64,000 nt of DNA from Gemmatimonadota bacterium (GCA_041488455.1 JBGPPG010000002.1:8662-72661); one strand, 5' to 3'. Counted from the first letter of the stretch, positions 3,001 through 30,850 are shown. Notes: generated by a model not told the origin, from the letters alone. Made by a program: numbers and translations.

Positions 3001-3001
3001 G

Positions 3002-14201: not shown

Positions 14202-14210
14202 CTGCCGCCG

Positions 14211-15872: not shown

Positions 15873-16990
15873 CCGTCCGCCACGCGCTCGGCAGCTATCC
15901 CGTCGAGGTCGAGGCCGGCGCGCTCGGCCGTCTTCGCGCGCTCGCGACGGCGCACGCCGGCGGGCGACGCCTGGCACTCATCACCGAGTCCACAGTCGGC
16001 CCTTTGTTCGATGCCTTCCGACGGGGATCGGGGCCGTGGCACGCGGCGGCCGGCGCCAAGGCGGACCTGCCGGACTTCGCCGCCGAGCTGGTCGTGCCGG
16101 CCGGAGAGACGTCCAAGAACCGGGCTCAGTGGGCCGCCCTCTCCGATCAGCTGCTCGACTGCGGCTTCGGCCGCGACAGCGCCATCGTCGCGCTGGGGGG
16201 CGGCGTGATCGGCGATCTCGCGGGCTTCGTCGCCGCGACATACCTCCGGGGCATTCCCTGCCTTCAGGTGCCGACCACCCTCCTCGCGATGCTGGACGCC
16301 TCGGTCGGCGGCAAGACCGGCGTGGACACGCCGCACGGCAAGAACCTGATCGGCGCATTCCATCCGCCGGTCGCAGTGGTCGCCGATCCGCTGGTCCTCC
16401 GCACCCTGCCGGAGCGGGAGTACCGCGCTGGACTAGCCGAGGCGGTGAAGCACGGGCTCATCGCCGACGCCGGCTACTTCGCCTGGCTGGGTGCGTCGGC
16501 GGATGCGATCACTCGGCGGGACGAGGCCACGCTCGCGACGCTCGTCCGCCGGAGCGTGGAGATCAAGGCGGCCGTGGTGGGCGAGGATGAGCGGGAAAGC
16601 GGACGGCGAGCCATCCTCAACGCGGGCCATACGGTCGCCCACGCGGTCGAGCACGCCTCCGGCTACGCTCTCGCCCACGGCGAGGCGGTCGCGCTCGGTC
16701 TGGTCGCCGAGTGCGAGCTGGCGGAGGCCATGGGAATCGGGCGGCGCGGACTCGGCGCGGAGGTGGCGGGGCTGCTCCGTCGACTTGGCTTGCCGGTCAG
16801 GCTGAATGCGGCGCTTCCACGCGACCGGGTCCTGGCCGCGATGGCCGCCGACAAGAAGAATCGCGCAGCCCGGGTGCGGTTCGCGCTTCCGCGCGACGTC
16901 GGCACCATGTTTCCGGGCGAGCGGTGGACGGTGGCGGCGGAGGAGCAGGCGATCGCCTCGGTGCTGGACGGCCTCAGCCGGGGGGCCTGA
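15866..16990 (+). CDS. aroB: 3-dehydroquinate synthase
   Basis: ATG at 15866 overlaps the previous stop by 7 nt. Motifs GGGVIGDLAGFVAATYLRGI, DASVGGKTG, GHTVAHAVE. Confidence 0.9.
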   Translation: MVTVRHALGSYPVEVEAGALGRLRALATAHAGGRRLALITESTVGPLFDAFRRGSGPWHAAAGAKADLPDFAAELVVPAGETSKNRAQWAALSDQLLDCGFGRDSAIVALGGGVIGDLAGFVAATYLRGIPCLQVPTTLLAMLDASVGGKTGVDTPHGKNLIGAFHPPVAVVADPLVLRTLPEREYRAGLAEAVKHGLIADAGYFAWLGASADAITRRDEATLATLVRRSVEIKAAVVGEDERESGRRAILNAGHTVAHAVEHASGYALAHGEAVALGLVAECELAEAMGIGRRGLGAEVAGLLRRLGLPVRLNAALPRDRVLAAMAADKKNRAARVRFALPRDVGTMFPGERWTVAAEEQAIASVLDGLSRGA

Positions 16991-17131
16991 GTCGCCTTCC
17001 GGAGCGGTTTCGGAGGGGTTCGGGGCGGGCTCCGGGCCCGAACGTCACTTATCCCCACGAAAATGGTGCGGTGGAGAAAGGGAGGAACCGATTCCTGATG
17101 AATGTTTTGTGATGTGGAAAACACCTCTTGC

Positions 17132-17160
17132 TTGACCGATCCGGCGCCCCTCCGTATATT
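17132..17160 (+). promoter_or_regulatory. sigma70-type promoter candidate for the sigma factor gene
   Basis: TTGACC (17132-17137), 17-nt spacer, TATATT (17155-17160). An AT-rich stretch lies directly upstream. About 80 nt before ATG 17246. Confidence 0.5.
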
Positions 17161-17245
17161 CAAGAGCCGCAACGGCTTACGACGCAGTCCCCTTGATTTG
17201 ATCTCCACAATCGGTCGTTAGGTCAACCCTCGCTCGGGGTGGTCT

Positions 17246-18142
17246 ATGCCTGTCGTCCGCAACAACGGGAATCCCCGCCCGCTGTTCCGCACCGCTCCCT
17301 CCAGCGCGTTCGACCAATACCTGCTCGACATCCAGAAGCTCCCGATGATCACGGACCCTGAGGAGGAAAAGCGGTTGGCGCGGCGCGCGCAGGCAGGTGA
17401 CGCGACGGCCGCTGAACGCCTGGTGACGGCCAACCTCCGATTCGTCATCTCCTACGTCAAGAAGTATCAGGGACACGGGCTCGAGCTTTCCGAGCTGGTC
17501 GCGATCGGTAACGAGGGACTGCTCAAGGCCGTTCGCAAATTCGATCCGGAGCACGGCGTCAAGTTCATCTCGTATGCGGTGTGGTGGGTACGCCAGGCCG
17601 TCCTCAAAGCCCTTGCCGAACAGACTCGCAGCGTCCGGATCCCCCTCAATCAGAACTCGGCGCTGATCCGTATGTCCCGCGCGGAGAGCTTCCTCGCCCA
17701 GGAGCTTGGCCGTGAGCCGACCGACCACGAGGTCGCGCTGGCGCTCAACGACACGGTGGACAACATCCGCGCCGCCCGCCGGATGACCGGGGCCGAGGTG
17801 TCGCTGGACGCCCCGGTCGAGCGGCAGGACCGGGCGTCGAGCACCTTCGGTGAGCGGGTGGCAGGCACGGGCCACGGCGAGATCGAGGAGATGACCGACA
17901 GCCGCCTGCGCCGGGAGTTCATCGAACGGCTCTTCGAGCGGCACCTGACACCGCGTGAGCGCAAGATCCTCTCCCTCTACTACGGACTGGAGGAGGGCTC
18001 GGAGGCGCTTACGCTGGAGAAGATCGGCGCGCTGCTCGGGGTCACCCGCGAGCGCATCCGCCAGATCCGGGAGCGGGCATTCGAGAAGCTGCGGGAATCG
18101 CCGGACGTGAAGTCGTTGAAGGAGGGATGGGTGGCAGCGTAG
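17246..18142 (+). CDS. RNA polymerase sigma factor, sigma70 family (RpoD/RpoS-like, lacks region 1.1)
   Basis: Region 2 (NLRFVISYVKKYQGHGLELSELVAIGNEGLLKAVRKFDP, FISYAVWWVRQAV), region 3, and region 4 HTH (LTLEKIGALLGVTRERIRQI). Confidence 0.9.
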   Translation: MPVVRNNGNPRPLFRTAPSSAFDQYLLDIQKLPMITDPEEEKRLARRAQAGDATAAERLVTANLRFVISYVKKYQGHGLELSELVAIGNEGLLKAVRKFDPEHGVKFISYAVWWVRQAVLKALAEQTRSVRIPLNQNSALIRMSRAESFLAQELGREPTDHEVALALNDTVDNIRAARRMTGAEVSLDAPVERQDRASSTFGERVAGTGHGEIEEMTDSRLRREFIERLFERHLTPRERKILSLYYGLEEGSEALTLEKIGALLGVTRERIRQIRERAFEKLRESPDVKSLKEGWVAA

Positions 18143-18302
18143 CAGCTATTAGCCGTTAGCCGTTAGCCCTTAGCCGTAGACTGGGGCCCTCCGCGAGCGT
18201 CGCGGGGGGCCTCGTTTCATTCGGAGCCTGAGCAGCTAACGGCTGAAGGCCAACGGCGAACAGCTGCCAGCCTTTAGCTAATGGCTAACGGCTAACGGCT
18301 AT
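18142..18302. repeat. heptamer-array inverted repeat element, TTAGCCG flavour
   Basis: Left arm: TTAGCCG TTAGCCG TTAGCCC TTAGCCG (18149-18176). Central GC hairpin: GGCCCTCCGCG-AGCGT-CGCGGGGGGCC (18185-18211). Right arm: ten in-register heptamers of CGGCTAA type (18233-18302). Confidence 0.85.
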
Positions 18303-18311
18303 CTTACACCC

Positions 18312-18983
18312 ATGCCCCCGTACCCGTTGCCTCTCTTTCCCCTCCAGGTTGTCCTGTTCCCGGGCACGCCGCTCCCGCTGCACATCTTCGAGCCGCGCTA
18401 CCGGCAGATGCTCGCGGATTGTCTCACGGGTGAGTCGCGGTTCGGTGTCGTGGGCCCGGGACGGGACGGCGAGGCACCCGACGTGGGCGCCGTGGGCTGC
18501 GCCGCGGAGATCCAGGGCAACGAGCAGCTCCCCGACGGGCGCTCGAACATCCTGGTCGTGGGCGGCGCCCGCTTCGTGGTGCAGCGGATGCTGGATGACC
18601 CGGCGCCCTATCACGTCGGCCTGGTGGAGGAGTTCGAAGAGCGGCCGAACACGCTGCCGCCGGCAGAGCCGCTGAGCGAGGTCCGGGATCTCTTCGCGCG
18701 GTACTACGAGATCTACCGATCGCTTCAGGATGTGGAGCCCGAGCGGCCTGACCTGCCGGAGGATCCCGTTCCGCTCAGCTTCACCATCAGCGCAGCGGTG
18801 GACTGCGACCCGGACCTCAAGCGGCGGCTCCTCGCGACGCGCGCCACCGACGAGCGGGTCGCCCTTTTGATGCGCCTCATTCCCGTGCTCACCCGGTCAC
18901 TCGAGTCGGCGCTCCGGGTGCACCATCGGGCGCGCCGCAACGGGAAGGGCAACATCCACTCGGTCCTCCCGGCCGATTCATGA
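18312..18983 (+). CDS. LON peptidase N-terminal (substrate-binding) domain protein
   Basis: PLFPLQVVLFPGTPLPLHIFEPRYRQM is the typical start of a LON N-terminal domain. No ATPase or protease part. Confidence 0.85.
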   Translation: MPPYPLPLFPLQVVLFPGTPLPLHIFEPRYRQMLADCLTGESRFGVVGPGRDGEAPDVGAVGCAAEIQGNEQLPDGRSNILVVGGARFVVQRMLDDPAPYHVGLVEEFEERPNTLPPAEPLSEVRDLFARYYEIYRSLQDVEPERPDLPEDPVPLSFTISAAVDCDPDLKRRLLATRATDERVALLMRLIPVLTRSLESALRVHHRARRNGKGNIHSVLPADS

Positions 18984-20413
18984 GCCCGGCGCTGCTCGAC
19001 GCGCTGAGCGGCATCGTCGGGCCCCGCTGGGTTCGGCACCGCAAGGCGGAGCTCACGACCTACGCCATGGACGGGTTGCCCACGCACGAGTCGCTACCGG
19101 GCGCCGTCGTCATGCCGGCGAGCCGAGCGGAAGTCGTCCAGGTCGTCCGCCTGCTCCATCTCCTTCAGGTGCCCTTCGTGGCCCGCGGCGCGGGCACCGG
19201 GCTCTCAGGCGGCGCGCTCGCGGACCCCGGGACGGTGCTGCTCGTGCTCACGCGGATGAATCGCATCGTCCGGGTGGACCGAACGGCCCGGCGGGCCGTC
19301 ATCCAGCCCGGCGTAGTGAACGCGCGCCTGTCCGAGGCCGTGGCCCCGCTCGGTCTCCAGTACGTTCCCGACCCGTCGAGCCAGGCCGCCTGCACCGTCG
19401 GCGGCAACGTCGCCGAAAACGCGGGCGGCCCGCACTGCCTCAAGTACGGGGTCACCACCAACCACGTGGTAGAGCTGGAGGTGGTGCTGCCCGATGCGAG
19501 CGTGGTGCGGCTCGGGTCGCCGCAGGGTGACCCGTGGGGTCCTGACCTGGTGGGACTCTTCGTCGGCAGCGAGGGCATGTTCGGCGTCGCGACCGAGATC
19601 ACCGTGCGGCTCGAGCCGATTCCGGCCGCCGTGCGCACCATGCTGGCCGACTTCTCCAGCGTGCGCGGCGCGAGCGAGGCGGTCTCTGCGATCATCGCCT
19701 CGGGCGTGGTGCCCGCGGCGCTCGAGATGATGGACCAGGCGTGCGTGCAGGCGGTCGAGGCGTCCATCTACGCCGCCGGCTATCCCACCGACGCCGCCGC
19801 GGTGCTGCTGGCGGAGGTGGACGGGACACCGGAGCAGGTCGAGGCGGAGGCGATGCTGGTGGAGGAAATCCTGCGCGCGCGCGGGGCCCGCGGGGTGAGG
19901 AGCGCCTCGTCCCCGGCCGATCGCGCCCGCCTCTGGCAGGGCCGCAAGAAGGCCTTCGGCGCGATGGGCCGCATCGCCCCCGATCTCGCGGTGCAGGACG
20001 CCGTGGTGCCCCGCTCCGCGCTGCCCGACATCCTCGACCGGATCGCCGAGATCCGCGGGCGGCACGCGCTCTCGATCAGCAACGTCTTCCACGCCGGCGA
20101 CGGAAACCTGCACCCGAACATCAGCTTCGACCGGCGCGATCCGGCGCTGGCCGCGCGCGTGCGCGAGGCGAGCCGGGAGATCATGGCGGTGTGCGTCGCC
20201 GCGGGCGGCAGCATCACCGGCGAGCACGGAGTGGGCAACGACAAGATGGGATACATGCCCTGGATCTTCGATGCCGAGACGCTCGGCGCCATGCAGGCAG
20301 TGCGCCGCGTGTTCGATCCGGACGAGCGCTGCAATCCGGGCAAGATGCTGCCAGAGCGGTCTTGCCGCGAATGGCGCGCCGCATCCGGAGCGCGGCGACA
20401 GGAGGCACCGTGA
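18980..20413 (+). CDS. glcD: glycolate oxidase subunit GlcD (FAD-linked oxidase)
   Basis: FAD-binding PCMH domain (VARGAGTGLSGGA). C-terminal FAD-oxidase domain (GEHGVGNDKMGYM). Followed by glcE and glcF. Confidence 0.88.
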   Translation: MSPALLDALSGIVGPRWVRHRKAELTTYAMDGLPTHESLPGAVVMPASRAEVVQVVRLLHLLQVPFVARGAGTGLSGGALADPGTVLLVLTRMNRIVRVDRTARRAVIQPGVVNARLSEAVAPLGLQYVPDPSSQAACTVGGNVAENAGGPHCLKYGVTTNHVVELEVVLPDASVVRLGSPQGDPWGPDLVGLFVGSEGMFGVATEITVRLEPIPAAVRTMLADFSSVRGASEAVSAIIASGVVPAALEMMDQACVQAVEASIYAAGYPTDAAAVLLAEVDGTPEQVEAEAMLVEEILRARGARGVRSASSPADRARLWQGRKKAFGAMGRIAPDLAVQDAVVPRSALPDILDRIAEIRGRHALSISNVFHAGDGNLHPNISFDRRDPALAARVREASREIMAVCVAAGGSITGEHGVGNDKMGYMPWIFDAETLGAMQAVRRVFDPDERCNPGKMLPERSCREWRAASGARRQEAP

Positions 20414-21615
20414 TCTTCGCCCGCCTGCGCGCGTTGCTCGGGCCCGCGGCCGTGGATCGCGACTCCGACAACGTTCCCCGCGTGACCCCCGACTCCACCG
20501 ATGCGCTGGCGCTGGTCTGCCGGCTCGCCTACGACGAGGGCTGGAAGATCCGGGTCGAGGGGCTCGCCTCCTGGCTCCCGGCCGACGCCCCGGCGGACCT
20601 GGCCGTGAGCACCCGGGCCCTGGACGAAATCGTCTCGGTAAATCCCGCCGACCTCGTGGCCACGGTGCAGGCCGGCGCGCCCATGGACGCCATCCGCCGG
20701 CGACTGGCCGAGCACGGCATGTGGCTCGCCGTGGACCCGCCTGGGCGGCCGGAGCGCACGCTGGGCTCGGTGATCGCGACCGGCACCAGCGGCCCGCTCC
20801 GGCACGGATTCGGCCCCGTTCGCGATCACATCCTGGGCTGCACGGTGGTAACCGGCGACGGGCGGATCGTGAAGCCGGGCGCCCGGGTCGTGAAGAACGT
20901 CGCCGGGTACGATTTGACCAAGCTGCACGTGGGGAGCTTCGGGGGTTTCGGCATCCTCACCGAGGCCCACCTGCGCCTCCGGGCGGCGCCGCGAGCGGAC
21001 GTCACGCTCGTCTGCCGCGGCAGCCGGGACGCACTCACCGCGGCCGCGCGTGACCTCCTCGAGGCGCACGCCGCGCCGGCAGCCCTGGAGCTCGTGTCTC
21101 CGGCCCTCGCGAGCGAGTCGGAGTGGGTGCTCGCCGCGCGGTTCCTCGGCGTGGACGCCGCGGTGCAGGGAGACGTGCGCCGCCTGCCGGCGGAGACTGA
21201 CGCGGTGTGGGAGCAGCTCCCGGCGGACCGGACCGCCGCCTTCTGGGCGCTCCTGGCGCGCGGCAGCCTGAGCGGGCCGATCACGTTCCGGCTCGGCGTG
21301 CTGGCCTACGGACTGGACGACACCCTCGACCTTCTCGCCCACGATCTCGACGACGGCATCATCGCGGCCGGTGCCGGCAGCGGGTCGCTCCGCTGGACTG
21401 GCGACGGGCCGATCGAGCGCCTGCGTGCAGTGCGCCGCGCCGCCGCCGCGCGAGAGATCCCCATGACCCTGGAGCGCGCGCCCTGGGCGGTCCGCCGGAC
21501 GCTGGGCCACTTCGGCGCGTACCGCGAGGGCCTCGGCCCGCTGGTGGACCGCCTGCGCGACACGTTCGATCCCAAACAGGCGTTGAGCGTGGCGCTGGAG
21601 GGCAGTGAGAAGTGA
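20410..21615 (+). CDS. glcE: glycolate oxidase FAD-binding subunit GlcE
   Basis: GTG start in a GTGA overlap with the glcD stop, with GGAGG 5 nt upstream. FAD-binding domain (KNVAGYDLTKLHVGSFG). The upstream part of track ORF 19741..21615 is an artefact. Confidence 0.82.
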   Translation: MIFARLRALLGPAAVDRDSDNVPRVTPDSTDALALVCRLAYDEGWKIRVEGLASWLPADAPADLAVSTRALDEIVSVNPADLVATVQAGAPMDAIRRRLAEHGMWLAVDPPGRPERTLGSVIATGTSGPLRHGFGPVRDHILGCTVVTGDGRIVKPGARVVKNVAGYDLTKLHVGSFGGFGILTEAHLRLRAAPRADVTLVCRGSRDALTAAARDLLEAHAAPAALELVSPALASESEWVLAARFLGVDAAVQGDVRRLPAETDAVWEQLPADRTAAFWALLARGSLSGPITFRLGVLAYGLDDTLDLLAHDLDDGIIAAGAGSGSLRWTGDGPIERLRAVRRAAAAREIPMTLERAPWAVRRTLGHFGAYREGLGPLVDRLRDTFDPKQALSVALEGSEK

Positions 21616-21632
21616 GAGGTGAGAACTGAGAG
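21605..21632 (+). repeat. heptamer array, GTGAGAA flavour, single arm (4 units)
   Basis: GTGAGAA GTGAGAG GTGAGAA CTGAGAG followed by GGGG. It contains the glcE stop codon (TGA 21613-21615) and ends 8 nt before the glcF start. Confidence 0.8.
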
Positions 21633-21640
21633 GGGCGGCG

Positions 21641-22918
21641 GTGGCTGAGATTGCGTCGGGCTACGACGCGCTGGACCCGTGCGTCCATTGCGGCTTCTGT
21701 CTGCCCGCCTGCCCGACTTACCTGGCCACGGGTGACGAGGCGGACAGCCCGCGCGGGCGCATCGTGCTCATGCGGGCGCTGGAGCGCGGGGAGCTCGACG
21801 CCGAGGACGACGGACTGGTCTCGCACCTGGACGCGTGTCTGGGGTGCCGCGGCTGCGAGCCGGTCTGCCCCTCGGGCGTCGGCTACGGCCGCGGGCTCGA
21901 GGCGGCACGTGAGCAGTTGTTCCGGACCCGCGGGCTCCCCGCGCTTGCCCGTCTCGGGCTTGGCGTCTTCCGGAGCCGGGCACTTTGGCGGGCGCTCTTC
22001 GGTGCGGGCTGGCTGCTCCGCGAGACCGGCATCCCCGCCCGGCTCGCAGGCGAGAGCGGCTTCGGCTTCACCATGGCGATGCTGGCGGCAACGGGGGACG
22101 GGCGGCATCGGCGGGCCCGAGCGGCGGCGACGGGGGCTTCGAAGGGCGCGTCAGTGCGCGGCAGCCCTATGGCTCCGTCAGTCGTCCTCTTTCGCGGCTG
22201 CGTGATGCAAGGACTGTTCGCCCACGTGCACGACGCCACCCGGCGCACGCTGGAGGCCAACGGCTATGAGGTGCGCGAGGCGGAGGGGCAGGCCTGCTGC
22301 GGCGCGCTGCACGAGCATGCAGGGGACCGCGCGGGCGCGGCCGCGCTCGCGGTGCGCAACGTGGCCAGCCTCCTCGACGCAGCCGATTGGATCGTCGTGA
22401 ACAGCGCCGGGTGCGGCGCGCTGCTCAAGGACTACGGCCACCTCCTCGGCACCGACGCCGGCACCCGGTTCGGGGCCAAGGTGCGCGACGTCTCCGAGCT
22501 GCTGGCCGAGCGGGGACCGAGGCCGGGGGGACCGCTTCCGCTCGAGGTGGCCTACGACGCGCCCTGCCATCTCCAGCACGCGCAGCGGGTGCAGGCCGCA
22601 CCGCTCGCGGTCCTCGGCGCGATCCCCGGCCTCCGGCTCCGACTGCTTCCAGGGTCGGATCGGTGCTGCGGCGGCGCGGGCATCTATTCGCTGCTTCACC
22701 CCGGGCTCGCGCGCTCGGTGCTCGACGACAAGCTTCGCGCCTTCCGCGCCGCCGAGCCCGCGCTCGACGCAGTGACCACCGGCAACCCCGGCTGTCTGAT
22801 GCAGATCGGCGCGGGGCTCCGAGCTTCAGGACTCGGAATCCCCGCGGTGCATCCGGTGGAGCTGCTCGACCGATCGTACGCAGCCGGAGGCGTGTACAAG
22901 GAACTGCGCGAACAGTAA
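21641..22918 (+). CDS. glcF: glycolate oxidase iron-sulfur subunit GlcF
   Basis: Two 4Fe-4S motifs (CVHCGFCLPACP, CLGCRGCEPVCP) and C-terminal CCG domains (NSAGCGALL, GNPGCLMQI). Confidence 0.9.
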   Translation: MAEIASGYDALDPCVHCGFCLPACPTYLATGDEADSPRGRIVLMRALERGELDAEDDGLVSHLDACLGCRGCEPVCPSGVGYGRGLEAAREQLFRTRGLPALARLGLGVFRSRALWRALFGAGWLLRETGIPARLAGESGFGFTMAMLAATGDGRHRRARAAATGASKGASVRGSPMAPSVVLFRGCVMQGLFAHVHDATRRTLEANGYEVREAEGQACCGALHEHAGDRAGAAALAVRNVASLLDAADWIVVNSAGCGALLKDYGHLLGTDAGTRFGAKVRDVSELLAERGPRPGGPLPLEVAYDAPCHLQHAQRVQAAPLAVLGAIPGLRLRLLPGSDRCCGGAGIYSLLHPGLARSVLDDKLRAFRAAEPALDAVTTGNPGCLMQIGAGLRASGLGIPAVHPVELLDRSYAAGGVYKELREQ

Positions 22919-22991
22919 GAGGTGAACAGTGAACAGGGGGTTGGGCGCGGTAGGGAGCCGCCCCGTTTACTGTTCACTGCTCACTGTTCAC
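22908..22991. repeat. heptamer-array hairpin element, GTGAACA flavour
   Basis: Left arm: GCGAACA GTAAGAG GTGAACA GTGAACA GGGGG. A 20-nt centre. Right arm: CCCCG TTTAC TGTTCAC TGCTCAC TGTTCAC. The glcF stop TAA (22916-22918) lies inside the second unit. Confidence 0.85.
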
Positions 22992-23001
22992 GTTTCTTGC
23001 C

Positions 23002-23670
23002 ATGACCCGGGCCATCCTCTTCGACTTCAACGGCGTCATCATCGACGACGAGCCGCAACACTGCGAGGCGCTCACCGCGACACTTGCCGAGTACGATATC
23101 CCGCTCGACCGGGAGGCGTACTACCGCGAGTATCTCGGGTTCGACGATCGCGAGTGCTTCCGGTTCACCTTCGAGCGGCACGGCCGGCCGACGGACGCCG
23201 CGGCGCTCTCCGAGGCGATCGAGCGGAAGGCGCGTCACTATGCCTCGGCGATCCACTGCTCGATGACGCTGGTCCCCGGGGCTGCGGAGTTCGTCCGCGC
23301 GGCCGCGGCGGACGGCCTCGCGCTCGCGGTGGTGTCGGGCGCGCTCCGGCGGGAGATCGAACTGGTGCTCGACGCGGCGGGGCTGCGGCCGCACTTCGGC
23401 GTGGTGATCGCCGCGGAGGACGTGTCCGCCTGCAAGCCGGACCCACAGGGGTACACGCGCGCCCGCCGGGAGCTGGGACTCGAGCCCGGGCGCTGCGTGG
23501 TGGTCGAGGACTCGCTCCCGGGGCTGGCGGCTGCGCGGGCGGCGGGACTCCGCTGCGCCGTGCTGACGACGTCCCACCCGGCCGACGCGCTCGGGGCCGC
23601 GGACGCGGTGTGGCCCGACCTCGCCGGGCGCAAACCATCCGACTTGCCGTGGGCCGATGCCGCCGCGTGA
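23002..23670 (+). CDS. HAD superfamily hydrolase (beta-phosphoglucomutase/phosphatase-like, subfamily IA)
   Basis: Motif I in AILFDFNGVIIDDE. Downstream HAD motifs (VVSGA..., VVVEDSLPGLAAARAAG). Confidence 0.82.
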   Translation: MTRAILFDFNGVIIDDEPQHCEALTATLAEYDIPLDREAYYREYLGFDDRECFRFTFERHGRPTDAAALSEAIERKARHYASAIHCSMTLVPGAAEFVRAAAADGLALAVVSGALRREIELVLDAAGLRPHFGVVIAAEDVSACKPDPQGYTRARRELGLEPGRCVVVEDSLPGLAAARAAGLRCAVLTTSHPADALGAADAVWPDLAGRKPSDLPWADAAA

Positions 23671-24646
23671 GCTGCCGTACGATCGCGCGCGGCTCGACCG
23701 TCTGCGTCGCGGCGCCGTGATCGTCGTCGGCGAGCCGGCGGTCTTCTGGGTCGACGGACCGGCCGCGCTTACCTGCCTCCAGGGCCTCCTCACCAACGAT
23801 CTGGACAAGCCGGGCGAGCACAGCCTGATCTACGGCGCGCTCCTCACGCCCAAGGGCGCGATCGTAGTGGACTATTGGGTCTTCCGCGAGCCGGAGCGGT
23901 TCGCGCTGGTGGCCCCGATCGAGGGGCGGCTTGCATCCCACGAGCTGTTCCGCCGGCAGGTGCCGCCACGGCTCGCCCGCATCGCGGACGCGACCGGCCA
24001 GGTGGAGGTCGCGTGGCTGCTGGGGTCGCAGGCGTTCGCCGCGCTCGCGCGCTCGCCCATCCAGCCCATCCCCGATGCCGCCGGTCGCACGGCGACGCTC
24101 GAGTATCCCGAGGGCCGCCTGCTGCTCGGCCTCGCACCGGAGACGGCGCCGTTCGCGGCGGTGGCCCTCGGGCCGCGCGGCGGGATCCGCCAGTTCGCCG
24201 CGGCGCTGGCGGCGGTGGGGGTCGAGCCTGGGACGCCGGAGGACGCGGAGGCCGCCCGGATCCTGGCCGGCTGGCCGGCCCTGGGCGCGGAGATCGACGA
24301 GCGGACGCTCCCGCAGGAAGTCCGCTTCGACCAGCTGGGAGGCGTCTCCTATACCAAGGGCTGCTATGTGGGGCAGGAGACCGTGGCGCGGCTCCACTTC
24401 CGCGGGCACACCAACCGCGAGCTACGGGGCCTCGTGTGGCGAAGCCCGGCGCCGCTCGAGGGCGACGCGGTCACGGCGTCGGGACGCGCGGTCGGAAGCG
24501 TGCGCTCCACGCTCGTGCTCGACGACCGGCTGCTGGGACTCTCGCCCATTCGCCGGGAGGTGGGCCTGGGCGCCGAGGTCGAGGCGGGCGGGCGGGCGGC
24601 GCGGGTGGTCGCATTGCCCTTCGCGGCGGAGGATCTCGACGGCTGA
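23657..24646 (+). CDS. ygfZ: folate-binding protein YgfZ (GcvT-like fold)
   Basis: GcvT-like N-terminal part and the YgfZ signature KGCYVGQETVARLHFRG. The start is uncertain (14-nt overlap with the HAD gene). Confidence 0.8.
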   Translation: MPPRELPYDRARLDRLRRGAVIVVGEPAVFWVDGPAALTCLQGLLTNDLDKPGEHSLIYGALLTPKGAIVVDYWVFREPERFALVAPIEGRLASHELFRRQVPPRLARIADATGQVEVAWLLGSQAFAALARSPIQPIPDAAGRTATLEYPEGRLLLGLAPETAPFAAVALGPRGGIRQFAAALAAVGVEPGTPEDAEAARILAGWPALGAEIDERTLPQEVRFDQLGGVSYTKGCYVGQETVARLHFRGHTNRELRGLVWRSPAPLEGDAVTASGRAVGSVRSTLVLDDRLLGLSPIRREVGLGAEVEAGGRAARVVALPFAAEDLDG

Positions 24647-24660
24647 GGGGCGGAAACGAC

Positions 24661-24693
24661 CGAGCCCCGGTAGAGCGTGCTCCCCGGGGCTCG
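24661..24693. terminator. bidirectional hairpin between convergent ygfZ and the small lipoprotein gene
   Basis: Perfect 10-bp inverted repeat CGAGCCCCGG (24661-24670) / CCGGGGCTCG (24684-24693) with a 13-nt loop. No clear U-tract. Confidence 0.45.
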
Positions 24694-24724
24694 CGGCGAC
24701 AGTGCGACGATCGCGCTTGCGCGC

Positions 24725-24904
24725 TTACATCTTCTTGCTGGTGTCCCGCGCCATGGTGCTGTCGTGATGCATCATCGTGCTGTCCATGCCGCCGGCGGCG
24801 GGTGCGGCGGCCGGCGCTTCGGACGAAGCCGGGGCCTCCGCTTTCTTCTCGCCTGCACAGGCCATAACCGCGAGCGCCGCGGCCAGGCAAAGTGTCTTCA
24901 TCAT
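24725..24904 (-). CDS. small lipoprotein with His/Met-rich C-terminus (59 aa)
   Basis: MMKTLCLAAALAVMACAG (signal peptide plus lipobox). AAGGAG lies 6 nt upstream of the ATGATG. C-terminus GGMDSTMMHHDSTMARDTSKKM. The longer 82-aa track form was not preferred. Confidence 0.6.
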   Translation of the reverse strand: MMKTLCLAAALAVMACAGEKKAEAPASSEAPAAAPAAGGMDSTMMHHDSTMARDTSKKM

Positions 24905-24983
24905 GTGTTGCTCCTTCGAGGGGTTGGGTGTCCAGTAAAATGTAGCGCGCATGCCGTCACTGTCGTCCGGCATACGGCGTGCG

Positions 24984-25011
24984 AAGGTAAGGCGCTATCG
25001 GCGTTTGTCAA
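24984..25011 (-). promoter_or_regulatory. sigma70-type promoter candidate for the small lipoprotein gene
   Basis: Minus strand: TTGACA (25011-25006), 16-nt spacer, TACCTT (24989-24984). Confidence 0.35.
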
Positions 25012-25148
25012 GCCGCCGTGGGGGGCCGATTTAGCAATGTCGGGTGCGGCCCTGGCCCTGCCGGACTTGCCCCGGCGGCCCCATACGGCCACGTTCCGCC
25101 AAGAGGAACCCCGGCGCGGTGCCGGGGCCTCCGAGTCGAGGTAACTTC

Positions 25149-26624
25149 GTGAAATCGCACAGCATCGAGCCCCGGACCTTCGGGGAGCTCCGCAACAGTC
25201 CCTGGGCCGATCCCCCCCTCCGCGGGCGCACAGTCCGGGACGAAATCCGCGCCAATCTTGTAACCCGGCTCACGGCCGGAGAGGAGCTGTTCCCCGGCAT
25301 CGTCGGCTACGAGGACACCATCCTCCCCCAGCTCGTGAACGCGCTCCTGGCGCGGCATCACTTCATCCTGCTGGGCCTGCGCGGGCAGGCGAAAAGCCGG
25401 ATCCTGCGCCAGCTGGTGTCCCTCCTCGACGAGCGCGTTCCGATCGTGGCGGGTAGCGAGGTGAACGATGACCCGTTCGCGCCCATCTCCAAGTACGCCC
25501 GGGACCGCCTTGGCGAGTGCGGCGACGCGACGGCGATCGGATGGCTCGATCGCTCGCAGCGCTACGTCGAGAAGCTCGCCACGCCCGACGTGACCATCGC
25601 CGACATCATCGGGGACGTGGATCCTATCAAGGCCGCGCGCGGCGGGCATCTGCTCTCCGACGAGCTGACCATGCACTTCGGGCTCCTGCCCCGCGCCAAT
25701 CGCGGCATCTTCGCGATCAACGAGCTGCCGGATTTGAGCGGCAAGGTGCAGGTCGGCCTGTTCAACATCATGCAGGAAGGTGACGTCCAGATCAAAGGCT
25801 ATCCGGTGCGTCTCCCGCTCGACGTGCTGCTCGCGTTCACGGCCAACCCCGAGGACTACACCGCGCGCGGCAAGATCATCACCCCGCTGAAAGACCGCAT
25901 CGGATCCGAGGTGATCACCCATTACCCCCGCACCGTGCAGCTCGGCATGGAGATCACGGCGCAGGAGGCGTGGACCCGGCGGGACGGGCCGGAGGTGGAC
26001 GTACCCGACTTCATCCTGGAGCTGGTCGAGCGCGTGGCCTTCGAGGCCCGCGAGGACAAGCGGGTCGACCGCCGCTCCGGCGTGAGTCAACGGCTCCCGA
26101 TCAGCGTGCTGGAGAGCGTCGTCTCGAACGCGGAGCGCCGGGCGATCGCGCTGGGCGAGCGGCGCGCCGTGCCCCGCGTCAGCGACGTCTACGCCGCCAC
26201 ATCCGCTATCACCGGCAAGCTCGAGCTCGAGTATGAGGGTGAGCTCCAGGGTGGGGACGCCATTGCCCGCGAGCTGATCCGCCGCGCCGCCGGGCGCGTG
26301 CTCGATGAGCGGGCCGGCGGCGCCGACCTCAGCCGGATCGTCGCCTGGTTCGATCAGGGCGGCGCGCTCAAGATCTCGGGTGACGAGCGCGCCGAGGTCT
26401 GCGTGAAGGGATTCGGCGTGGTGCCCGGGCTCGTGGACGTCGTGAGCGACGTCGGCCTGGCACCGCGCGGCGACGCCGGCTACGGCGTGGCCGCATGTGA
26501 GCTGGTGCTGGAGGGCCTCGCGGCCCAGAAGCGCATCAGCCGGAGCGAGGAGTTGGGCTACACCCGGGCAAAGCCGGAGAGACGGGATCCGGGGTACGGG
26601 AAAGGTGGGATTTCCTTCGGGTAA
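25149..26624 (+). CDS. AAA+ ATPase of the ChlI/MoxR-like (Mg-chelatase-like) group, partner of a vWA protein
   Basis: Walker A-like LLGLRGQAKS. Walker B region GIFAINELPDL. Start assigned to GTG 25149, with GAGG about 8 nt upstream (the track ORF begins at 25044). A vWA/MIDAS protein is encoded nearby on the same strand. Confidence 0.72.
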   Translation: MKSHSIEPRTFGELRNSPWADPPLRGRTVRDEIRANLVTRLTAGEELFPGIVGYEDTILPQLVNALLARHHFILLGLRGQAKSRILRQLVSLLDERVPIVAGSEVNDDPFAPISKYARDRLGECGDATAIGWLDRSQRYVEKLATPDVTIADIIGDVDPIKAARGGHLLSDELTMHFGLLPRANRGIFAINELPDLSGKVQVGLFNIMQEGDVQIKGYPVRLPLDVLLAFTANPEDYTARGKIITPLKDRIGSEVITHYPRTVQLGMEITAQEAWTRRDGPEVDVPDFILELVERVAFEAREDKRVDRRSGVSQRLPISVLESVVSNAERRAIALGERRAVPRVSDVYAATSAITGKLELEYEGELQGGDAIARELIRRAAGRVLDERAGGADLSRIVAWFDQGGALKISGDERAEVCVKGFGVVPGLVDVVSDVGLAPRGDAGYGVAACELVLEGLAAQKRISRSEELGYTRAKPERRDPGYGKGGISFG

Positions 26625-26722
26625 GCAGTGAACGGTGAGCAGTGAACGGGGAACTCCGCGTTGCACGGAGTCCCCCGTTTACGGTTTACTGTTTACCGTT
26701 CACTTCACTGTTCACCGTTTGC
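26621..26722. repeat. heptamer-array hairpin element, GTGAACA flavour, exactly filling a convergent intergenic gap
   Basis: Left arm: GTAAGCA GTGAACG GTGAGCA GTGAACG. Central hairpin: GGGGAACTCCG-CGTTGCA-CGGAGTCCCCC. Right arm: seven TGTTCAC-type units to 26722. The TAA stop (26622-26624) is inside unit 1. The opposite gene's stop is at 26723-26725. Confidence 0.88.
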
Positions 26723-27346
26723 CTACTTCCATCCCCTCCTCCTCGCCTCGCCGACGATCAGCTCTGCCGCCCCGTCGTACCCCAGCCGCTCGGTGTTGAG
26801 CACGATGTGATACCCCACGGGATCGGCCCAGTCGCGGGAGTAGTGCTCTCGGTGGTACCGCTCCCGCTGGGCGTCCGTCTGCAGCGTCACCCGTTCGGCT
26901 TCCTTGAAATCGAGCCCCAGCCGCTCCGCCGTGACCTTGATCCGAAAGCCTTTCGACGCGACCAGCTTCACATGCAGTGCGTCCCGCTCCCGTGCCAGCA
27001 CCGCCGGTGCCGCCCGGCCGACCAGCACCACCCGTCCCGCCCGCGCCGCTTCCTCGACCACCGCCTCGGTGATCCGCACCAGGGTGGCCTCGGACAGCTC
27101 CGGCACCGTGCCCGTGGCCGGGGGAAAGAGCTCCGGCGTGGACGTGGCGAGCACCCGCGCGAGCCGCTCGATGAAGCTCGGCGTCCGTTCCTCGATGCCG
27201 GCCATTTCCTCCGCCGAGATCCCGGTACGCGCCGCGACCCGCTCGAGCAGCTCGTTGTCCACCAGCCGCCACCCGAGCGCGTCGGCCACGCGCCCCGCGA
27301 CCTCAGAGCCGCCGGCGCCGTACTGGCGGGAGACGGTGATCAGCAT
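26723..27346 (-). CDS. cytidylate kinase-like family protein (P-loop NTPase)
   Basis: N-terminus MLITVSRQYGAGGSEVAGRVADALGW is typical of the cytidylate-kinase-like family. 207 aa. Confidence 0.8.
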   Translation of the reverse strand: MLITVSRQYGAGGSEVAGRVADALGWRLVDNELLERVAARTGISAEEMAGIEERTPSFIERLARVLATSTPELFPPATGTVPELSEATLVRITEAVVEEAARAGRVVLVGRAAPAVLARERDALHVKLVASKGFRIKVTAERLGLDFKEAERVTLQTDAQRERYHREHYSRDWADPVGYHIVLNTERLGYDGAAELIVGEARRRGWK

Positions 27347-27353
27347 GGTCCGC

Positions 27354-28610
27354 TCACGGTCGCGTCCGCCCCAGATACCAGGCGACCCCTGCCACGATCA
27401 GGCAGCACGCCGCGCCGCCCAGCCCGATGGAATAGCGCACGCCGAGGTGCTCCGCCACGATGCCAGCCTGGAACGAGCCGATCGGCGCCAGTCCGAGGAC
27501 CAGGAACGAGTAGACGCCCATCACCCGGCCGCGGAGATGGTCCGGCGCCTGGATCTGGAGCAGCGTGTTCCCTAGGATCCCGTTGGCCGCCATCGTCCAC
27601 CCTGCGAGCGTGAACAGGCCGAGTGATGCCGAGAAGCTCGACACCACCGCGATGCAGGCCAGCGTGGCGCCGAAGAGCGATGACGCGGCGATCAGCAGCC
27701 GCTCCTTCCGGTACCGCTTCCCGAACCCGGCCAGGCCCAGCGCTCCAGCCGCCGCGCCGACGCCGATCGCCGAGACCAGCGCGGCGTATCCCGACGCTCC
27801 GACCTTGAGCACGTCGCGGGCGAAGACCGGGGCCATGATCATGAAGGGGAACCCGAAGATGGCGAAGCCCGCGATGAGCACCACCAGCGCGCGGGGCCAC
27901 CGGTTGTCCAGCACGTAGCGGAAGCCCTCTTTCATCGCGGCGAGTGCGTTCGGGCGGGAGCCCGACGCGGGCGGCGCGGTCCGCATCATGACCAGGCTGG
28001 CCACGACGGCGAGGTAGCTCGCGGCGTTGGCGAAGAAGCAGGCCGCCAGCCCGAACGCCGCGATCAGGGCCCCGGCCACCGCGGGGCCGATCACGCGCGC
28101 CACGTTGAACCCCATCGAGCTGAGGGCCAGCGCATTCATCAGATCTTCCCGCTCCACCAGATCTACCACCAGCGCCTGGCGGGTCGGCACCTCGAACGCC
28201 GAGAGCAGCCCCGCGAACACGGCGAGCGCCATGATCCAGTGGACCGTGATCCAGTGGAACACCGTCAGGATGGCGAGGGCGAGGGCCTCGAGCAGCATCA
28301 GAGACTGGAGCAGCAGGACGAACCGCCGCTTGTCCACCCGGTCGGCCACGACACCCCCATAGAGCGTGAGTAGCAGGATCGGAAGCGAGCCGAGCGTCGT
28401 CACCAGCCCGACTGCGAACGGCGAGTTCGTCAGCTCGAGCACCAGCCAGCCGAGGGCTACCTGCTGCATCAGCGTGCCGCAGAGCGACACGAACTGACCG
28501 ATGAGAAAGAGGCGGAAGTTCCGGTGGCGGAGGGCGGCGAAGGTGGAGCGGAGCCGGAGAGCGGCGGCCCTGGGCAGGGCGGACGCGGCGGCGGTTATGG
28601 CGATGGACAC
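27354..28610 (-). CDS. MFS transporter (EntS/MFS_3-like)
   Basis: LRHRNFRLFLIGQFVSLCGTLMQQVALGWLVL and about 12 predicted TM segments. Start placed at GTG 28610, because the track's N-terminal extension translates the heptamer repeats (PFTVHC...LPFTVYC). Confidence 0.8.
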   Translation of the reverse strand: MSIAITAAASALPRAAALRLRSTFAALRHRNFRLFLIGQFVSLCGTLMQQVALGWLVLELTNSPFAVGLVTTLGSLPILLLTLYGGVVADRVDKRRFVLLLQSLMLLEALALAILTVFHWITVHWIMALAVFAGLLSAFEVPTRQALVVDLVEREDLMNALALSSMGFNVARVIGPAVAGALIAAFGLAACFFANAASYLAVVASLVMMRTAPPASGSRPNALAAMKEGFRYVLDNRWPRALVVLIAGFAIFGFPFMIMAPVFARDVLKVGASGYAALVSAIGVGAAAGALGLAGFGKRYRKERLLIAASSLFGATLACIAVVSSFSASLGLFTLAGWTMAANGILGNTLLQIQAPDHLRGRVMGVYSFLVLGLAPIGSFQAGIVAEHLGVRYSIGLGGAACCLIVAGVAWYLGRTRP

Positions 28611-28619
28611 CGGACAACA

Positions 28620-28701
28620 GTAAACGGTGAACGGTAAACAGTGAACAGGGCCACGGCAGTGAACCGTGAACGGTAAGCGGTGAACAGGGGGTCCGGCCCC
28701 C
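28620..28701 (+). repeat. heptamer array, GTGAACA flavour, two direct blocks of four units plus a G5/C5 mini-hairpin
   Basis: Block 1: GTAAACG GTGAACG GTAAACA GTGAACA GGG. An 11-nt linker. Block 2: GTGAACC GTGAACG GTAAGCG GTGAACA. Then GGGGGTCCGGCCCCC. All units share the same orientation. Located between divergent gene starts. Confidence 0.85.
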
Positions 28702-28808
28702 AGAGGGTCCGCGTTGAACCTTCCGGGGATCGGGGGTAGCATTGAGAAGGCAGGGGATGCCTCCAATGCCCCGTGTTCGCGGTTCTACTCACCGTCCACC
28801 TCTCGGCC

Positions 28809-30098
28809 ATGCGCTTCACCACGTACTCCAAGTTCGTCCCCGAGCTGGCTGACGCCGTCAATCTCCAGGGTCTGCTCGACCAGCTGAGCGACTTCCTCCT
28901 CCAGTCCGGCTTCGCCGGGCAGGGCCAGTCGTTCTGGCAAGACGAGATGGAAGACGGGGACCGCTCGCTGGAGGCGCTCAAGCAGGCCGTGCTCAAGGCG
29001 CTGATGGACTCCGGCCAGCTCACCCCGGAGATGCTCAAGGTCCTTCGGGGCGAGGGCACCGGCGACCCGGAGCGCGACAAGGAGATCGAGCGGCAGCTGG
29101 GCGAGCTGCTGGACCGGATCGTACAGCGGCTGATCGACGAGGGGTACCTGAACGTCACCCAAGCGCCCCAGGTGCCGGGGGGGTACCAGTCCATGTTCGG
29201 CCCGGGCGGCAAGGCCCAGTCCGCCGCCCAGCAGGTGCAGTTCAACCTGACCGAGAAGGGCATCGATTTCCTCGGCTACAAGACCCTCAAGAACCTGCTC
29301 GGGAGCGTGGGCAAGTCGAGCTTCGGAGCTCACGAGACCCCGTATCTCGCCACCGGCGTCGAGACCGAGGGAACCAGCAAGCCGTACGAGTTCGGCGACG
29401 TGCTCAACCTCGACGTCCCCGCCACACTCGGCAGCGCCATCGCGCGCGAGGGGCTGGGCGTCCCGCTCAATCTCGAGTACGAAGATCTGATGGTGAGCCA
29501 GGCCGAGTACCGCTCGTCCTCCGCGACCGTGCTCATGCTCGACTGCTCCCACTCGATGATCCTCTACGGCGAGGACCGCTTCACCCCGGCCAAGAAGGTG
29601 GCCCTCGCCCTGACCCACCTGATCCGCACCCAGTTCCCGGGAGACAGTCTCCGCGTCGTTCTCTTCCACGACTCGGCCGAGGAGATTCCGCTCAGCGCCC
29701 TCGCCGCGGCGCAGGTCGGTCCCTACCACACCAACACCGCCGAGGGGCTCAAGCTGGCCCGCCGCATCCTGCTGGGCCAGAAGAAGGACATGCGCCAGAT
29801 CATCATGATCACGGACGGCAAGCCGTCCGCGCTCACCATGCCCGACGGCCGGATCTACGTGAACTCGATGGGGCTCGACCCGCAGATCCTGGCCGCCACC
29901 TACCGCGAGGTCGCCAACTGCCGGCGCAGCGGCATCATGATCAACACATTCATGCTGGCGCGCGACCGGAGCCTGGTGGAGTTCGTCAAGCAGGTGGCGG
30001 CCATCTGCAAGGGGAAGGCGTACTTCACCAATACGATGACGCTCGGACAGTTCATTCTCATGGACTTCATGAAGCGGAAGACGCGGAGAGTGAGCTGA
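28809..30098 (+). CDS. von Willebrand factor type A (vWA) domain protein with MIDAS motif
   Basis: Start at MRFTTYSKF (ATG 28809). MIDAS DxSxS in [14 protein letters not shown]-terminal vWA fold signature ([11 protein letters not shown]). Confidence 0.8.
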
Positions 30099-30796
30099 CC
30101 CAGTCGACCGCCCGGGAGCTGGCCGCGCTCGAGCGGGCGATCGTAAGCTGTGAACGCTGTCCCCGCCTGGTCGCGTACCGACAGCGGGTGGCCCGCACCA
30201 AGAAGCGGGAATTCCAGGACTGGACCTATTGGGGACGGCCGGTGCCCGCGTTTGGCGACCCCCGAGCGCGGCTCCTGATCGTGGGTCTCGCGCCCGCCGC
30301 GCACGGCGCCAACCGCACCGGGCGGATGTTCACCGGCGACTCCAGCGGCGACTGGCTCTACGACGCGCTGCACCGCTACGGCTTTGCCGATCGAGCCGAG
30401 TCCCGGAGCTGGGACGACGGCCTCACGCTCACCGGCTGCTGGATCACCGCCGCTGCCCGCTGCGCTCCCCCCGACAACAAGCCCACCCGCGAAGAGCTGG
30501 TCCGCTGCCGGCCCTACCTCGAGCGCGAGGTTGGGCTCCTTAGCTCGGTGAAGGTCGTGCTGGCGCTCGGCCGCGTGGCCTGGGAGACCTGGCTCCGCGC
30601 GAGCGGATGGTGGGAGCGGCTTCCGCCGGCCAAGCGGCCCCCGTTTTCGCACGGTGCCGAGACGACGCTGCCCGACGGGCGGATCCTGCTGGTTTCCTAC
30701 CACCCGAGCCGGCAGAACACCAACACCGGGAAGCTCACCCGGGAGATGTGGTATGGGATATTCGAGCGGGCGAGGGAGCTGGTGGGAACGGCGTGA
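30095..30796 (+). CDS. uracil-DNA glycosylase, family 5 (UDGb-like) / family 4-5 Fe-S UDG
   Basis: Motif GLAPAAHGANRTGRMFTGD (the GLAPA variant typical of family 5). The C-terminal HPS motif (SYHPSRQN). The N-terminal CERCPRL Cys pair lies upstream of the first canonical start (GTG 30188), so the start is tentatively placed at CTG 30095. Confidence 0.7.
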   Translation: MTQSTARELAALERAIVSCERCPRLVAYRQRVARTKKREFQDWTYWGRPVPAFGDPRARLLIVGLAPAAHGANRTGRMFTGDSSGDWLYDALHRYGFADRAESRSWDDGLTLTGCWITAAARCAPPDNKPTREELVRCRPYLEREVGLLSSVKVVLALGRVAWETWLRASGWWERLPPAKRPPFSHGAETTLPDGRILLVSYHPSRQNTNTGKLTREMWYGIFERARELVGTA

Positions 30797-30850
30797 AAAG
30801 TGAGAAGGGAGAAGGCGGGTCCTCTCCCTTCTCACCTCTCACTTCTCACT
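30793..30850. repeat. heptamer-array hairpin element, GTGAGAA flavour
   Basis: Left arm: GTGAAAA GTGAGAA GGGAGAA. Centre: GGCGGGTCC. Right arm: TCTCCCT TCTCACC TCTCACT TCTCACT. The UDG stop (TGA 30794-30796) and the M48 gene stop (30846-30848, minus) both lie inside terminal units. Confidence 0.88.

Follow-up and report, generated by a model that had tools for sequence, protein, structure and literature searches.

Introduction

Tandem repeats of 7-nt units reportedly include the STRR heptamers of cyanobacteria, which Mazel et al. are said to have described in 1990. As far as the survey of Mrazek (2007) is summarised in two later papers (PMC4679880, PMC4692102), heptanucleotides are the dominant long simple sequence repeat (SSR), being the commonest long class in many large GC-rich genomes and mostly non-coding, with polymerase slippage proposed as their source. 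Here we analyse a 64,000-nt stretch from a Gemmatimonadota bacterium (GCA_041488455.1 JBGPPG010000002.1:8662-72661; 69.6% G+C), which we refer to as the window, in which tandem heptamers occur at six loci between genes and form long hairpins at four of them. We read these elements as palindromic heptanucleotide microsatellites, which would arise at gene-boundary hairpins and change length there, without transposition, and we put the probability of this reading at about one half.

Two kinds of palindrome invite comparison. Elements of the REP/BIME type are extragenic, lie at 3′ ends or between convergent genes, protect mRNA 3′ ends as hairpins and form conserved families mobilised by RAYT; those no more than 15 nt away from a stop codon, according to Liang, Rudd and Deutscher in 2015, reportedly affect translation. 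The Rickettsia palindromic elements (RPE), which Ogata et al. are said to have described in 2000, reportedly form a conserved mobile family of ~100-150 bp that sits in frame and is translated as surface loops or linkers.

Heptamer arrays themselves have been studied in several groups. GGGAATC in Xanthomonas and GGGGAYT in Nostoc occur in non-coding DNA more often than expected (Rehm et al. 2015, PMC4692102). Each Xanthomonas genome holds 70-75 'convergent' inverted pairs, which are potential stem-loops; the G-rich strand is the coding strand 0-50 bp after a stop codon or overlapping it and the non-coding strand just 5′ of starts, the repeats are rare between divergent open-reading frames (ORFs), their position is conserved whilst their length varies by species, and transcripts start or stop more often at them, although their function 'remains to be elucidated' (PMC4692102). 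The TAACTGA repeats of marine Beggiatoaceae, cyanobacteria and Bacteroidetes use one unit across taxa, occur as 169 direct sets and one inverted set, mainly just 5′ of start codons, and carry stops in all three frames of the forward strand with the reverse strand open, which was read as a constraint on the sites that tolerate them (MacGregor 2015, PMC4679880). Geobacter metallireducens has paired tandem hepta-, octa- and nona-nucleotide sites on opposite strands (units MTYCTGA ×5 and GTTGCTYN ×4), at variable distance and dozens of loci, of unknown function (Aklujkar et al. 2009, PMC2700814).

Heptamer arrays and hairpins of the window

Tandem Repeats Finder (TRF) and an independent period-7 self-match scan confined the heptamer arrays of the window to six loci, all intergenic, the sole exception being a GC-rich intragenic chance match at 2906-2926. 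Eight period-7 arrays were found, against 0.77 ± 0.82 (maximum 3) in 100 dinucleotide-preserving shuffles of the window. The six loci named in a preliminary description of this DNA are therefore real and were placed correctly, and its claim that four of them are long hairpins is borne out by folding (z −4.9 to −7.6 against shuffled controls): 18140-18305 folds with −94.8 kcal/mol (z −7.3), 22905-22995 with −50.2 kcal/mol (z −6.1), 26615-26725 with −57.2 kcal/mol on the plus strand (z −7.6) and −57.5 kcal/mol on the minus strand (z −8.9), and 30788-30858 with −36.9 kcal/mol (z −4.9) and −41.0 kcal/mol (z −5.3), respectively. These four are the longest and top-ranked inverted repeats of the whole 64 kb. 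The remaining two loci (21602-21633 and 28616-28701) consist of direct arrays and lack a reverse-complement arm, as that description had implied; neither folds significantly (z +0.6 and −0.4).

The flanking genes are Pfam-backed (sigma-70, LON-domain, GlcD/E/F-like, HAD, GCV_T, cytidylate-kinase-like, MFS, VWA, UDG and M48), and their 3′ ends agree between the gene calls of a near-identical public contig and our own codon-usage gene finder. The TTAGCCG palindrome (18142-18304) lies between a sigma-70 family gene and a LON-domain gene starting at 18312, with a 5′ arm at 18149-18177 and a 3′ arm of GCTAACG units at 18275-18304; the sigma-factor stop (18140-18142), previously described as abutting a unit, precedes the first TTAGCCG unit by 6 nt. 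Inside this palindrome is a terminator-like GC hairpin (18182-18214) followed by TTTCATT, the best such hairpin of the region. The GTGAACA palindrome (22908-22992) separates glcF from a HAD hydrolase gene starting at 23002; its arms (22908-22938 and 22961-22992) flank a G-run, a GC centre and a C-run, and the glcF stop (22916-22918) is inside its first unit. Between a 501-aa AAA+-like gene and a cytidylate-kinase-like gene on the minus strand, whose coding range runs from 26723, stands the GTRARCR palindrome (26621-26722), with four units in its 5′ arm (26621-26652), ~7 in its 3′ arm (26675-26722), an inner 10-bp GC hairpin (26650-26678) and the stop of the 501-aa gene (26622-26624) in its terminal unit. 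We considered an intrastrand triplex formed by the excess 3′ units (26675-26722) and rejected it by reasoning, as the units lack the required mirror symmetry. The GTGAGAA palindrome (30793-30854) lies between the UDG gene and the M48 peptidase gene on the minus strand, and both stops (30794-30796, and 30846-30848 on the minus strand) are within terminal units. The last two elements occupy whole convergent spacers (26625-26722 and 30797-30845), two of the three convergent spacers longer than 13 nt.

Of the direct arrays, the one at 21602-21633 (plus strand) consists of four GTGAGAA-type units, holds the glcE stop (21613-21615) and ends 8 nt before the GTG start of glcF (21641), with stops in the three plus-strand frames and none on the minus strand; its purine-rich end GAGAGGGG is probably the ribosome-binding site of glcF. 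The locus at 28616-28701 (plus strand) comprises two direct GTRAACR arrays (28616-28650 and 28659-28686), and ends in a small GGGGG-TCCGG-CCCCC hairpin (28687-28701). Its setting is a divergent spacer, with the MFS gene (minus strand, start ~28610) on one side and the VWA gene (28773) on the other. A promoter-like TTGAAC-17-TAGCAT is present at 28714-28742, past the arrays and 5′ of the VWA gene.

Read inwards, nine of ten arms close all three reading frames, as the preliminary description had it for any three consecutive units, and the 5′ arm at 30793 closes two; the stops of successive units fall in different frames, since each 7-nt unit shifts the frame by one. In the direct arrays the reverse strand is open in every frame. 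That description had proposed frame-independent translation-stop and transcription-terminator cassettes; taken as a model, these would be dedicated and selected for that role, with the stop as the purpose of the units. The window gives this model three unit types that all carry inward stops, the closure of nine arms, and the native stops of glcE, glcF, the 501-aa gene, UDG and M48, confirmed by their coordinates inside terminal units; the locus at 28616 is at odds with it, being upstream of genes and not after one.

All six loci cluster within 18-31 kb of the window, and positions 1-18000 and 31000-64000 contain no heptamer array despite three convergent and many tandem spacers. Units also recur among neighbouring loci: GTGAACR is used at three loci within 6 kb and GTGAGAA at two that are 9 kb from each other, which may reflect local copying between nearby arrays. 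A tandem repeat of a different length, ~11-bp CGGAGCGGTTT, is found at 17000-17028, 5′ of the sigma-factor gene.

Position and pairing persist while units turn over

Comparison with relatives (contigs carrying our handles, coordinates after the colon) shows how these junctions change. The window is syntenic with L081, a contig of a Gemmatimonadales metagenome-assembled genome, at 62-85% amino-acid identity, and therefore comes from the order Gemmatimonadales. A hairpin lies directly 3′ of the glcF stop in L081 and in nine sampled lineages, built from at least six different units (GTGAGAA, GGTGAGA/AGGTGAG, TGAGCGG, AGAGTCT, AAGGAGT and AGCTCGT, that of L081 being GGTGAGA, against GTGAACA in the window), and the arms are complementary in every case. 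At the glcF 3′ junction, position and pairing persist while the unit sequence turns over.

Other junctions of L081 differ in kind. At the glcE|glcF junction (L081:7040-7130, minus strand) it carries a period-8 palindrome, GCGGGGCA GTGGGGCA ... TGCCCCGC CGCCCCGC, in place of the window's direct GTGAGAA array, so that not only the sequence but also the length of the unit turns over at a junction. The spacer upstream of its MFS gene keeps the GTGAACR arrays and adds a 3′ arm, giving a complete hairpin where the window has none, and the orthologous convergent spacer holds only a decayed array. Centred in that complete GTGAACR hairpin is the promoter-like site conserved upstream of the VWA gene, which reads TTGAAC-17-TAGCTT here (L081:100-130, minus strand).

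The preliminary description had the arms growing in 7-nt steps, and comparison of relatives agrees that they change in such steps: 7-nt indels separate the arrays of L199 and L201 (GGGAGAG; 98% identity) and of L163 and L172 (TACTCCC), and copy number varies among relatives, for example TAAGGAG ×8 versus ×6. Closer strains are invariant. Two public contigs are near-identical to the window (L001, 99.88%; L002, 99.83%), and among the three there is no unit-number polymorphism at any array, the only indel between the window and L002 being 11 bp at 17005, one unit of the CGGAGCGGTTT repeat; no array changes were found in other pairs at 99.6-99.9% identity.

The 501-aa protein (25119-26624), earlier labelled a ChlI-like ATPase, has only sub-threshold AAA+ matches (AAA_5, Sigma54_activat) behind that label. 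Its identity to the L081 orthologue is 85%, far above the 62-72% of its neighbours, and the VWA-domain protein encoded nearby (28773-30098) suggests that the two are a MoxR/ChlI-type ATPase and its VWA partner.

Polarity, not stop content, is conserved

To place the window among its relatives we used a sample whose selection was blind to repeats. It comprises 80 metagenome loci, 704 kb in all at 63-75% G+C, with a GlcF homologue of 52-87% identity as the sole anchor. Arrays of at least three units were by far the most frequent at period 7 (136), with 36 at period 8, 16 each at periods 5, 6 and 10, and 11 at period 9, so that no period from 5 to 12 besides 7 exceeds 36. The units are highly diverse and nearly each element has its own; one 21-kb stretch holds six elements with six units. 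Among the 39 distinct inverted heptamer pairs of this sample, 16 contain no stop codon on either strand, 11 carry stops inwards, 5 outwards, and 7 are mixed. In 36 of the 39 the 5′ arm is purine-rich with G exceeding C and the 3′ arm pyrimidine-rich, and in 30 the 5′ arm has more A than T. Unpaired arrays show the same polarity relative to genes (15 versus 5 overall): past a stop the sense strand tends to be the purine-rich one (7 versus 3), whereas ahead of a start it tends to be pyrimidine-rich (8 versus 2).

A separate exact-pattern scan for four GTRARCR units, taking one genome per species and requiring no inverted partner, returned at least 120 stretches. Among the matches listed, 25 were from Acidobacteriota (mostly Pyrinomonadaceae), 20 from Gemmatimonadota, 14 from Cyanobacteria, 11 from Bacteroidota and 8 from Chloroflexota, with fewer from Verrucomicrobiota, Planctomycetota and Proteobacteria; very many of the listed matches have the layout of array, short centre and reverse-complement array, the purine-rich arm comes first in 39 of 40 listed pairs from eight phylum groups, and other heptamer hairpins with unrelated units occur in the same 8-kb loci, up to five per locus in Pyrinomonadaceae. 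Inward stops outnumber outward ones by 47 to 5 among these listed matches, a ratio that, like the unit frequencies, is biased by a pattern which preselects its own unit family, whereas the glcF-anchored sample is unbiased. Across phyla, the conserved property of the inverted pairs is polarity, and not unit sequence, G-quadruplex potential or stop content.

These counts bear most directly on the stop cassettes proposed earlier. In their favour inward stops prevail in both sets, by 47 to 5 in the pattern-selected loci and by 11 to 5 in the unbiased sample. Inward stops, though, are common because a purine-rich unit with a T usually spells one, and the inward bias therefore follows automatically from the purine-rich 5′ arm, which is present with or without stops. 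Period 7 dominates also where stops are lacking, 16 pairs are stop-less and 5 point outwards, and the stop-less elements are, as shown below, read through as predicted protein tails or as an in-frame GlcF linker. A stop codon in each unit is thus not supported as the organising principle; as a general rule the cassette model is largely refuted, and we consider it unlikely. The all-frame stops look like a by-product, being neither a necessary nor a conserved feature in the wider sample.

The same unit diversity bears on the idea that the arrays are regulatory, as G-quadruplexes or as sites for a repeat-recognising protein or global regulator. G-quadruplexes have been proposed for GGGAATC and GGGGATT repeats, and protein binding for those of Geobacter, Nostoc and Beggiatoaceae (PMC4692102, PMC2700814, PMC4679880, bioRxiv 10.1101/2022.06.06.494920); some relatives do have G-tract units (GGGGATT, AGGGGTC, AGTAGGG), and neighbouring loci of the window share units (GTGAACR at three, GTGAGAA at two). 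The units of the window (GTGAACA, GTGAGAA, TTAGCCG) contain no GGG tract, so a G-quadruplex from its arms was rejected, and many units per stretch, such as the six in 21 kb, cannot all be sites of one protein. We regard a regulatory array as improbable. Locus-specific units argue for local generation, and against both a binding-site and a transposon model.

Position relative to genes

The context of the 39 sampled pairs was assigned from predicted genes. Convergent spacers are the most densely occupied (10 pairs in 83 spacers, 12%), followed by divergent (3 pairs in 68, 4.4%) and tandem spacers (17 pairs in 467, 3.6%); eight pairs are intragenic and one lies at a contig edge. The 'divergent' and 'intragenic single' classes are the less certain ones, since our gene finder gives exact stops and sometimes over-extended starts (one error against the reference calls, 14211-15842). 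Thirty of 38 pairs are in spacers, which make up ~6.5% of the DNA, a ~50-fold enrichment over coding sequence. The arrays had been described as lying at gene ends; the spacer enrichment, densest between convergent genes, agrees with this, and the locus at 28616, in a divergent spacer and not at a gene end, departs from it. Arrays occurring as often within coding regions would have spoken against that description, and in the relatives they are far rarer in coding DNA, although not excluded from it.

Elements start between −24 and +4 nt relative to the upstream stop, and in convergent spacers both stops are in or at terminal units. Whichever strand is read, a purine-rich arm comes after the upstream stop and a pyrimidine-rich arm before the downstream start.

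Directly 3′ of the pyrimidine arm, just 5′ of the ATG of the HAD gene, we noted a conserved CCCCGTTATACCTT(N4-8)ATG in L130, L131, L134, L135, L138, L139, L141, L142, L144, L167 and L081, with its equivalent in the window at 22992-23001. CCCCGTTATACCTT may be the −10 element of a leaderless or short-leader HAD transcript, in which case the 3′ arm would overlap the HAD promoter.

Elements inside reading frames

A heptamer hairpin is found within glcF itself in at least 11 related contigs, at the linker that joins the Fe-S domain to the CCG domains. In L128, L157, L159, L190, L193 and L195 the glcF ORF stays open through the hairpin (415-469 aa from stop to stop), the palindromes being at L193:10440-10508, L159:10437-10509, L195:10438-10509, L190:2567-2645, L157:6888-6962 and L128:696-732. 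Here too the units differ by lineage (GAACGCG, GTCAGGA, GGGGATT, GGAATGC, AGGGGTC, GGAACTC), and in further lineages this position is taken by a palindrome of period 8 or 10, or by an unrelated one. The linker of the window (22085-22186) is GC-rich and non-periodic, and folds with −45.7 kcal/mol. Intragenic arrays have no stops in the frame being read.

A second kind of element predicted to be translated is the stop-less GGAGTGC/GGAATGC hairpin ~1.3 kb 5′ of glcF, which gene order would place at the glcD|glcE junction. The ORF on its 5′ side continues through the hairpin and gains a C-terminal tail of ~30 residues (L173:1190-1272, L185:1781-1864, L192:2087-2179, L201:8694-8775, L184:1989-2070), and the downstream gene starts 1-4 nt past the element. 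In-frame linker copies and C-terminal tails are therefore a source of new peptide sequence.

Two unrelated alleles occupy the glcF linker in close relatives, both in frame: a period-7 GGAATGC element (105 nt) and a period-10 GGTGGAGGTC element (117 nt), as seen by aligning L186:9770-9960, L180 and L181 with L190:2514-2700, L177, L184 and L198. Their distribution ignores a flank similarity of 96.6-97.6%, which looks like recombination of an old polymorphism or replacement of the whole element.

Insertion by a mobile family, MITE-like or REP/RAYT-like, at gene ends and tolerant linkers would account for in-frame insertions at one glcF spot and for two unrelated alleles there in genomes 96-98% identical. 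An unrelated REP-like palindrome at the same sites, described below, also fits it. When each window element was compared by BLAST with the window and ~1.6 Mb of fetched loci, however, arms matched other arms and nothing matched over a full length, for which reason a REP/MITE family was rejected. Within that DNA the window elements are thus not a conserved 20-40 nt imperfect palindrome in many near-identical copies, as REP/BIME would be. Loci that share a unit have unrelated centres, distinct terminal inverted repeats are lacking, no target-site duplications flank the glcF-linker alleles, each locus has its own unit, and the alleles are explicable by homologous recombination of old polymorphism. 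No Rfam family matched at gathering threshold anywhere in the window. The preliminary description did not recognise a described REP, BIME or MITE family, which these results support, and a mobile family is very improbable.

The recurring GC-rich palindrome GTCACCCTGAGCGAAGCGAAGGGG (translated ...VTLSEAKGP...) is found both as the centre of heptamer hairpins and within in-frame GlcF linkers (L133:1637-1769, L133:798-926, L155:492-731, the 3′ end of glcF in L149, L016:2191-2348, L031:6588-6803). This palindrome appears to be a REP-like element in its own right, one that targets the hairpin sites used by the heptamer elements.

Discussion

We favour palindromic heptanucleotide microsatellites, formed in place, as the explanation of these elements. 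A pre-existing hairpin at a gene boundary would gain a short direct repeat in its flank, and its arms would lengthen by replication slippage in 7-nt steps, with arm complementarity kept by selection for pairing or by template switching within the quasi-palindrome. Outward growth would stop where the sequence is constrained and cannot change, which would leave the ends of the arms at the neighbouring stop codons or slightly past them. Stops in the units could plausibly let an array overrun the native stop at the cost of a few added residues while keeping ribosomes out of the stem, and units without stops would simply be translated. A very stable hairpin at transcript 3′ ends, approached from both directions, is plausibly a boundary element, acting as a U-tract-independent terminator, a 3′-exonuclease barrier or a ribosome stop, and presumably silenced by translation when it lies inside an ORF.

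Several results weigh against this reading. Sense and antisense fold energies in co-directional contexts show no asymmetry (mean ΔΔG +0.3 kcal/mol, n = 18), and therefore nothing shows selection at the RNA level. Stems lack a canonical U-tract (T 0.23 in the 10-nt tails of 40 gene-facing stems, background 0.16-0.19), and elements inside the glcDEF operon and in frame in the glcF of relatives are awkward for a terminator. Arrays identical in strains of 99.6-99.9% identity mean that slippage is not fast. One element type has been replaced wholesale between genomes 96-98% identical, which gradual evolution in place does not predict. Finally, slippage does not explain the strong G>C polarity, for which the analogy to terminators offers only a loose account. 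Like bidirectional terminators, the elements have a purine/A-rich flank, a GC core and a pyrimidine/T-rich flank, which read alike on both strands, and pyrimidine-rich RNA on purine-rich DNA is a comparatively weak hybrid.

The elements do not look like canonical intrinsic terminators, as their stems lack the U-tract; a GC-rich stem followed by a U-tract is present only in the inner core of the TTAGCCG palindrome (18182-18214).

Slippage and quasi-palindrome template switching might also produce such elements as a neutral or selfish by-product, with selection only removing harmful copies. Arbitrary, locus-specific units would be expected of this, as would arms that are symmetric at the DNA level; no excess of G·U pairs on the sense strand was found in co-directional contexts. 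The missing U-tract, the tolerance of elements in a protein linker and in protein tails, the merely decayed array in the orthologous convergent spacer of L081, and a dedicated study that found no function in Xanthomonas or Nostoc all point the same way. Neutrality does not account for the strong polarity across phyla, the preference for convergent spacers (12% versus about 4%), a hairpin that persists at the same junction across many lineages despite unit turnover, or arrays that are stable between close strains, and we give it a modest chance.

A broader and more doubtful idea, to which we assign a rather small chance, is that periodic palindromes with 7-nt and sometimes 8- or 10-nt units around a GC centre form one class of fixed polarity spanning phyla, which would arise by a strand-polar process, colonise junctions, linkers and C-termini, and be exchangeable as whole elements between close relatives. 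Candidate processes would be slippage templated by a hairpin, or breaks whose 3′ ends are extended reiteratively and then joined. Such palindromes were seen in Gemmatimonadota, Acidobacteriota, Chloroflexota, Verrucomicrobiota, Cyanobacteria and several proteobacterial lineages, and published work adds Xanthomonas.

If the microsatellite hairpins do act as U-tract-independent bidirectional terminators, they would help to clarify how transcription ends in little-studied GC-rich soil phyla and improve the annotation of gene ends in them.

Comparison with known systems

The elements belong with the heptanucleotide SSRs, with at least three head-to-tail 7-nt units above chance and an over-represented period 7; the SSR surveys, in so far as later papers relay them, do not describe palindromic pairing, fixed polarity or a position at stop codons. 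Like REP/BIME elements and bidirectional intrinsic terminators they are palindromes outside genes, placed 3′ of genes or where two genes converge, yet neither a conserved-sequence family mobilised by RAYT nor a canonical U-tract was seen here. The glcF-linker palindromes of relatives, absent from the window, resemble RPE in being in frame within an otherwise intact ORF, and differ in their locus-specific periodic arms and in belonging to no conserved family. The Geobacter sites, unlike the elements here, are conserved multicopy BLAST families, some with an insertion sequence at a fixed distance, and were read as regulator sites (PMC2700814).

The direct arrays of the window resemble the TAACTGA repeats in having stops in all forward frames and an open reverse strand, and GTTATCA, the rotated reverse complement of TAACTGA, resembles the GTNANCA units found here; the units nevertheless differ, and 21602-21633 is the only direct array just before a start. 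Closest of all are the Xanthomonas repeats, with which the elements share the non-coding bias, the G-rich strand at or over the stop, the inverted pairs and the rarity between divergent genes (3 of 38 pairs). Xanthomonas has one dominant unit with G-tracts, capable of forming G-quadruplexes, whereas units here differ at nearly every locus, those of the window carry stops and no G-tract, relatives hold in-frame intragenic copies, and the host phylum is different. The architecture, which the preliminary description did not recognise, has thus already been described, as inverted heptamers in Xanthomonas (PMC4692102), and the all-frame stops in Beggiatoaceae (PMC4679880). New with respect to the heptamer repeats of the papers cited are the Gemmatimonadales and Acidobacteriota setting, the diversity of units within a genome, polarity as the conserved property, the in-frame linker copies and the protein tails.

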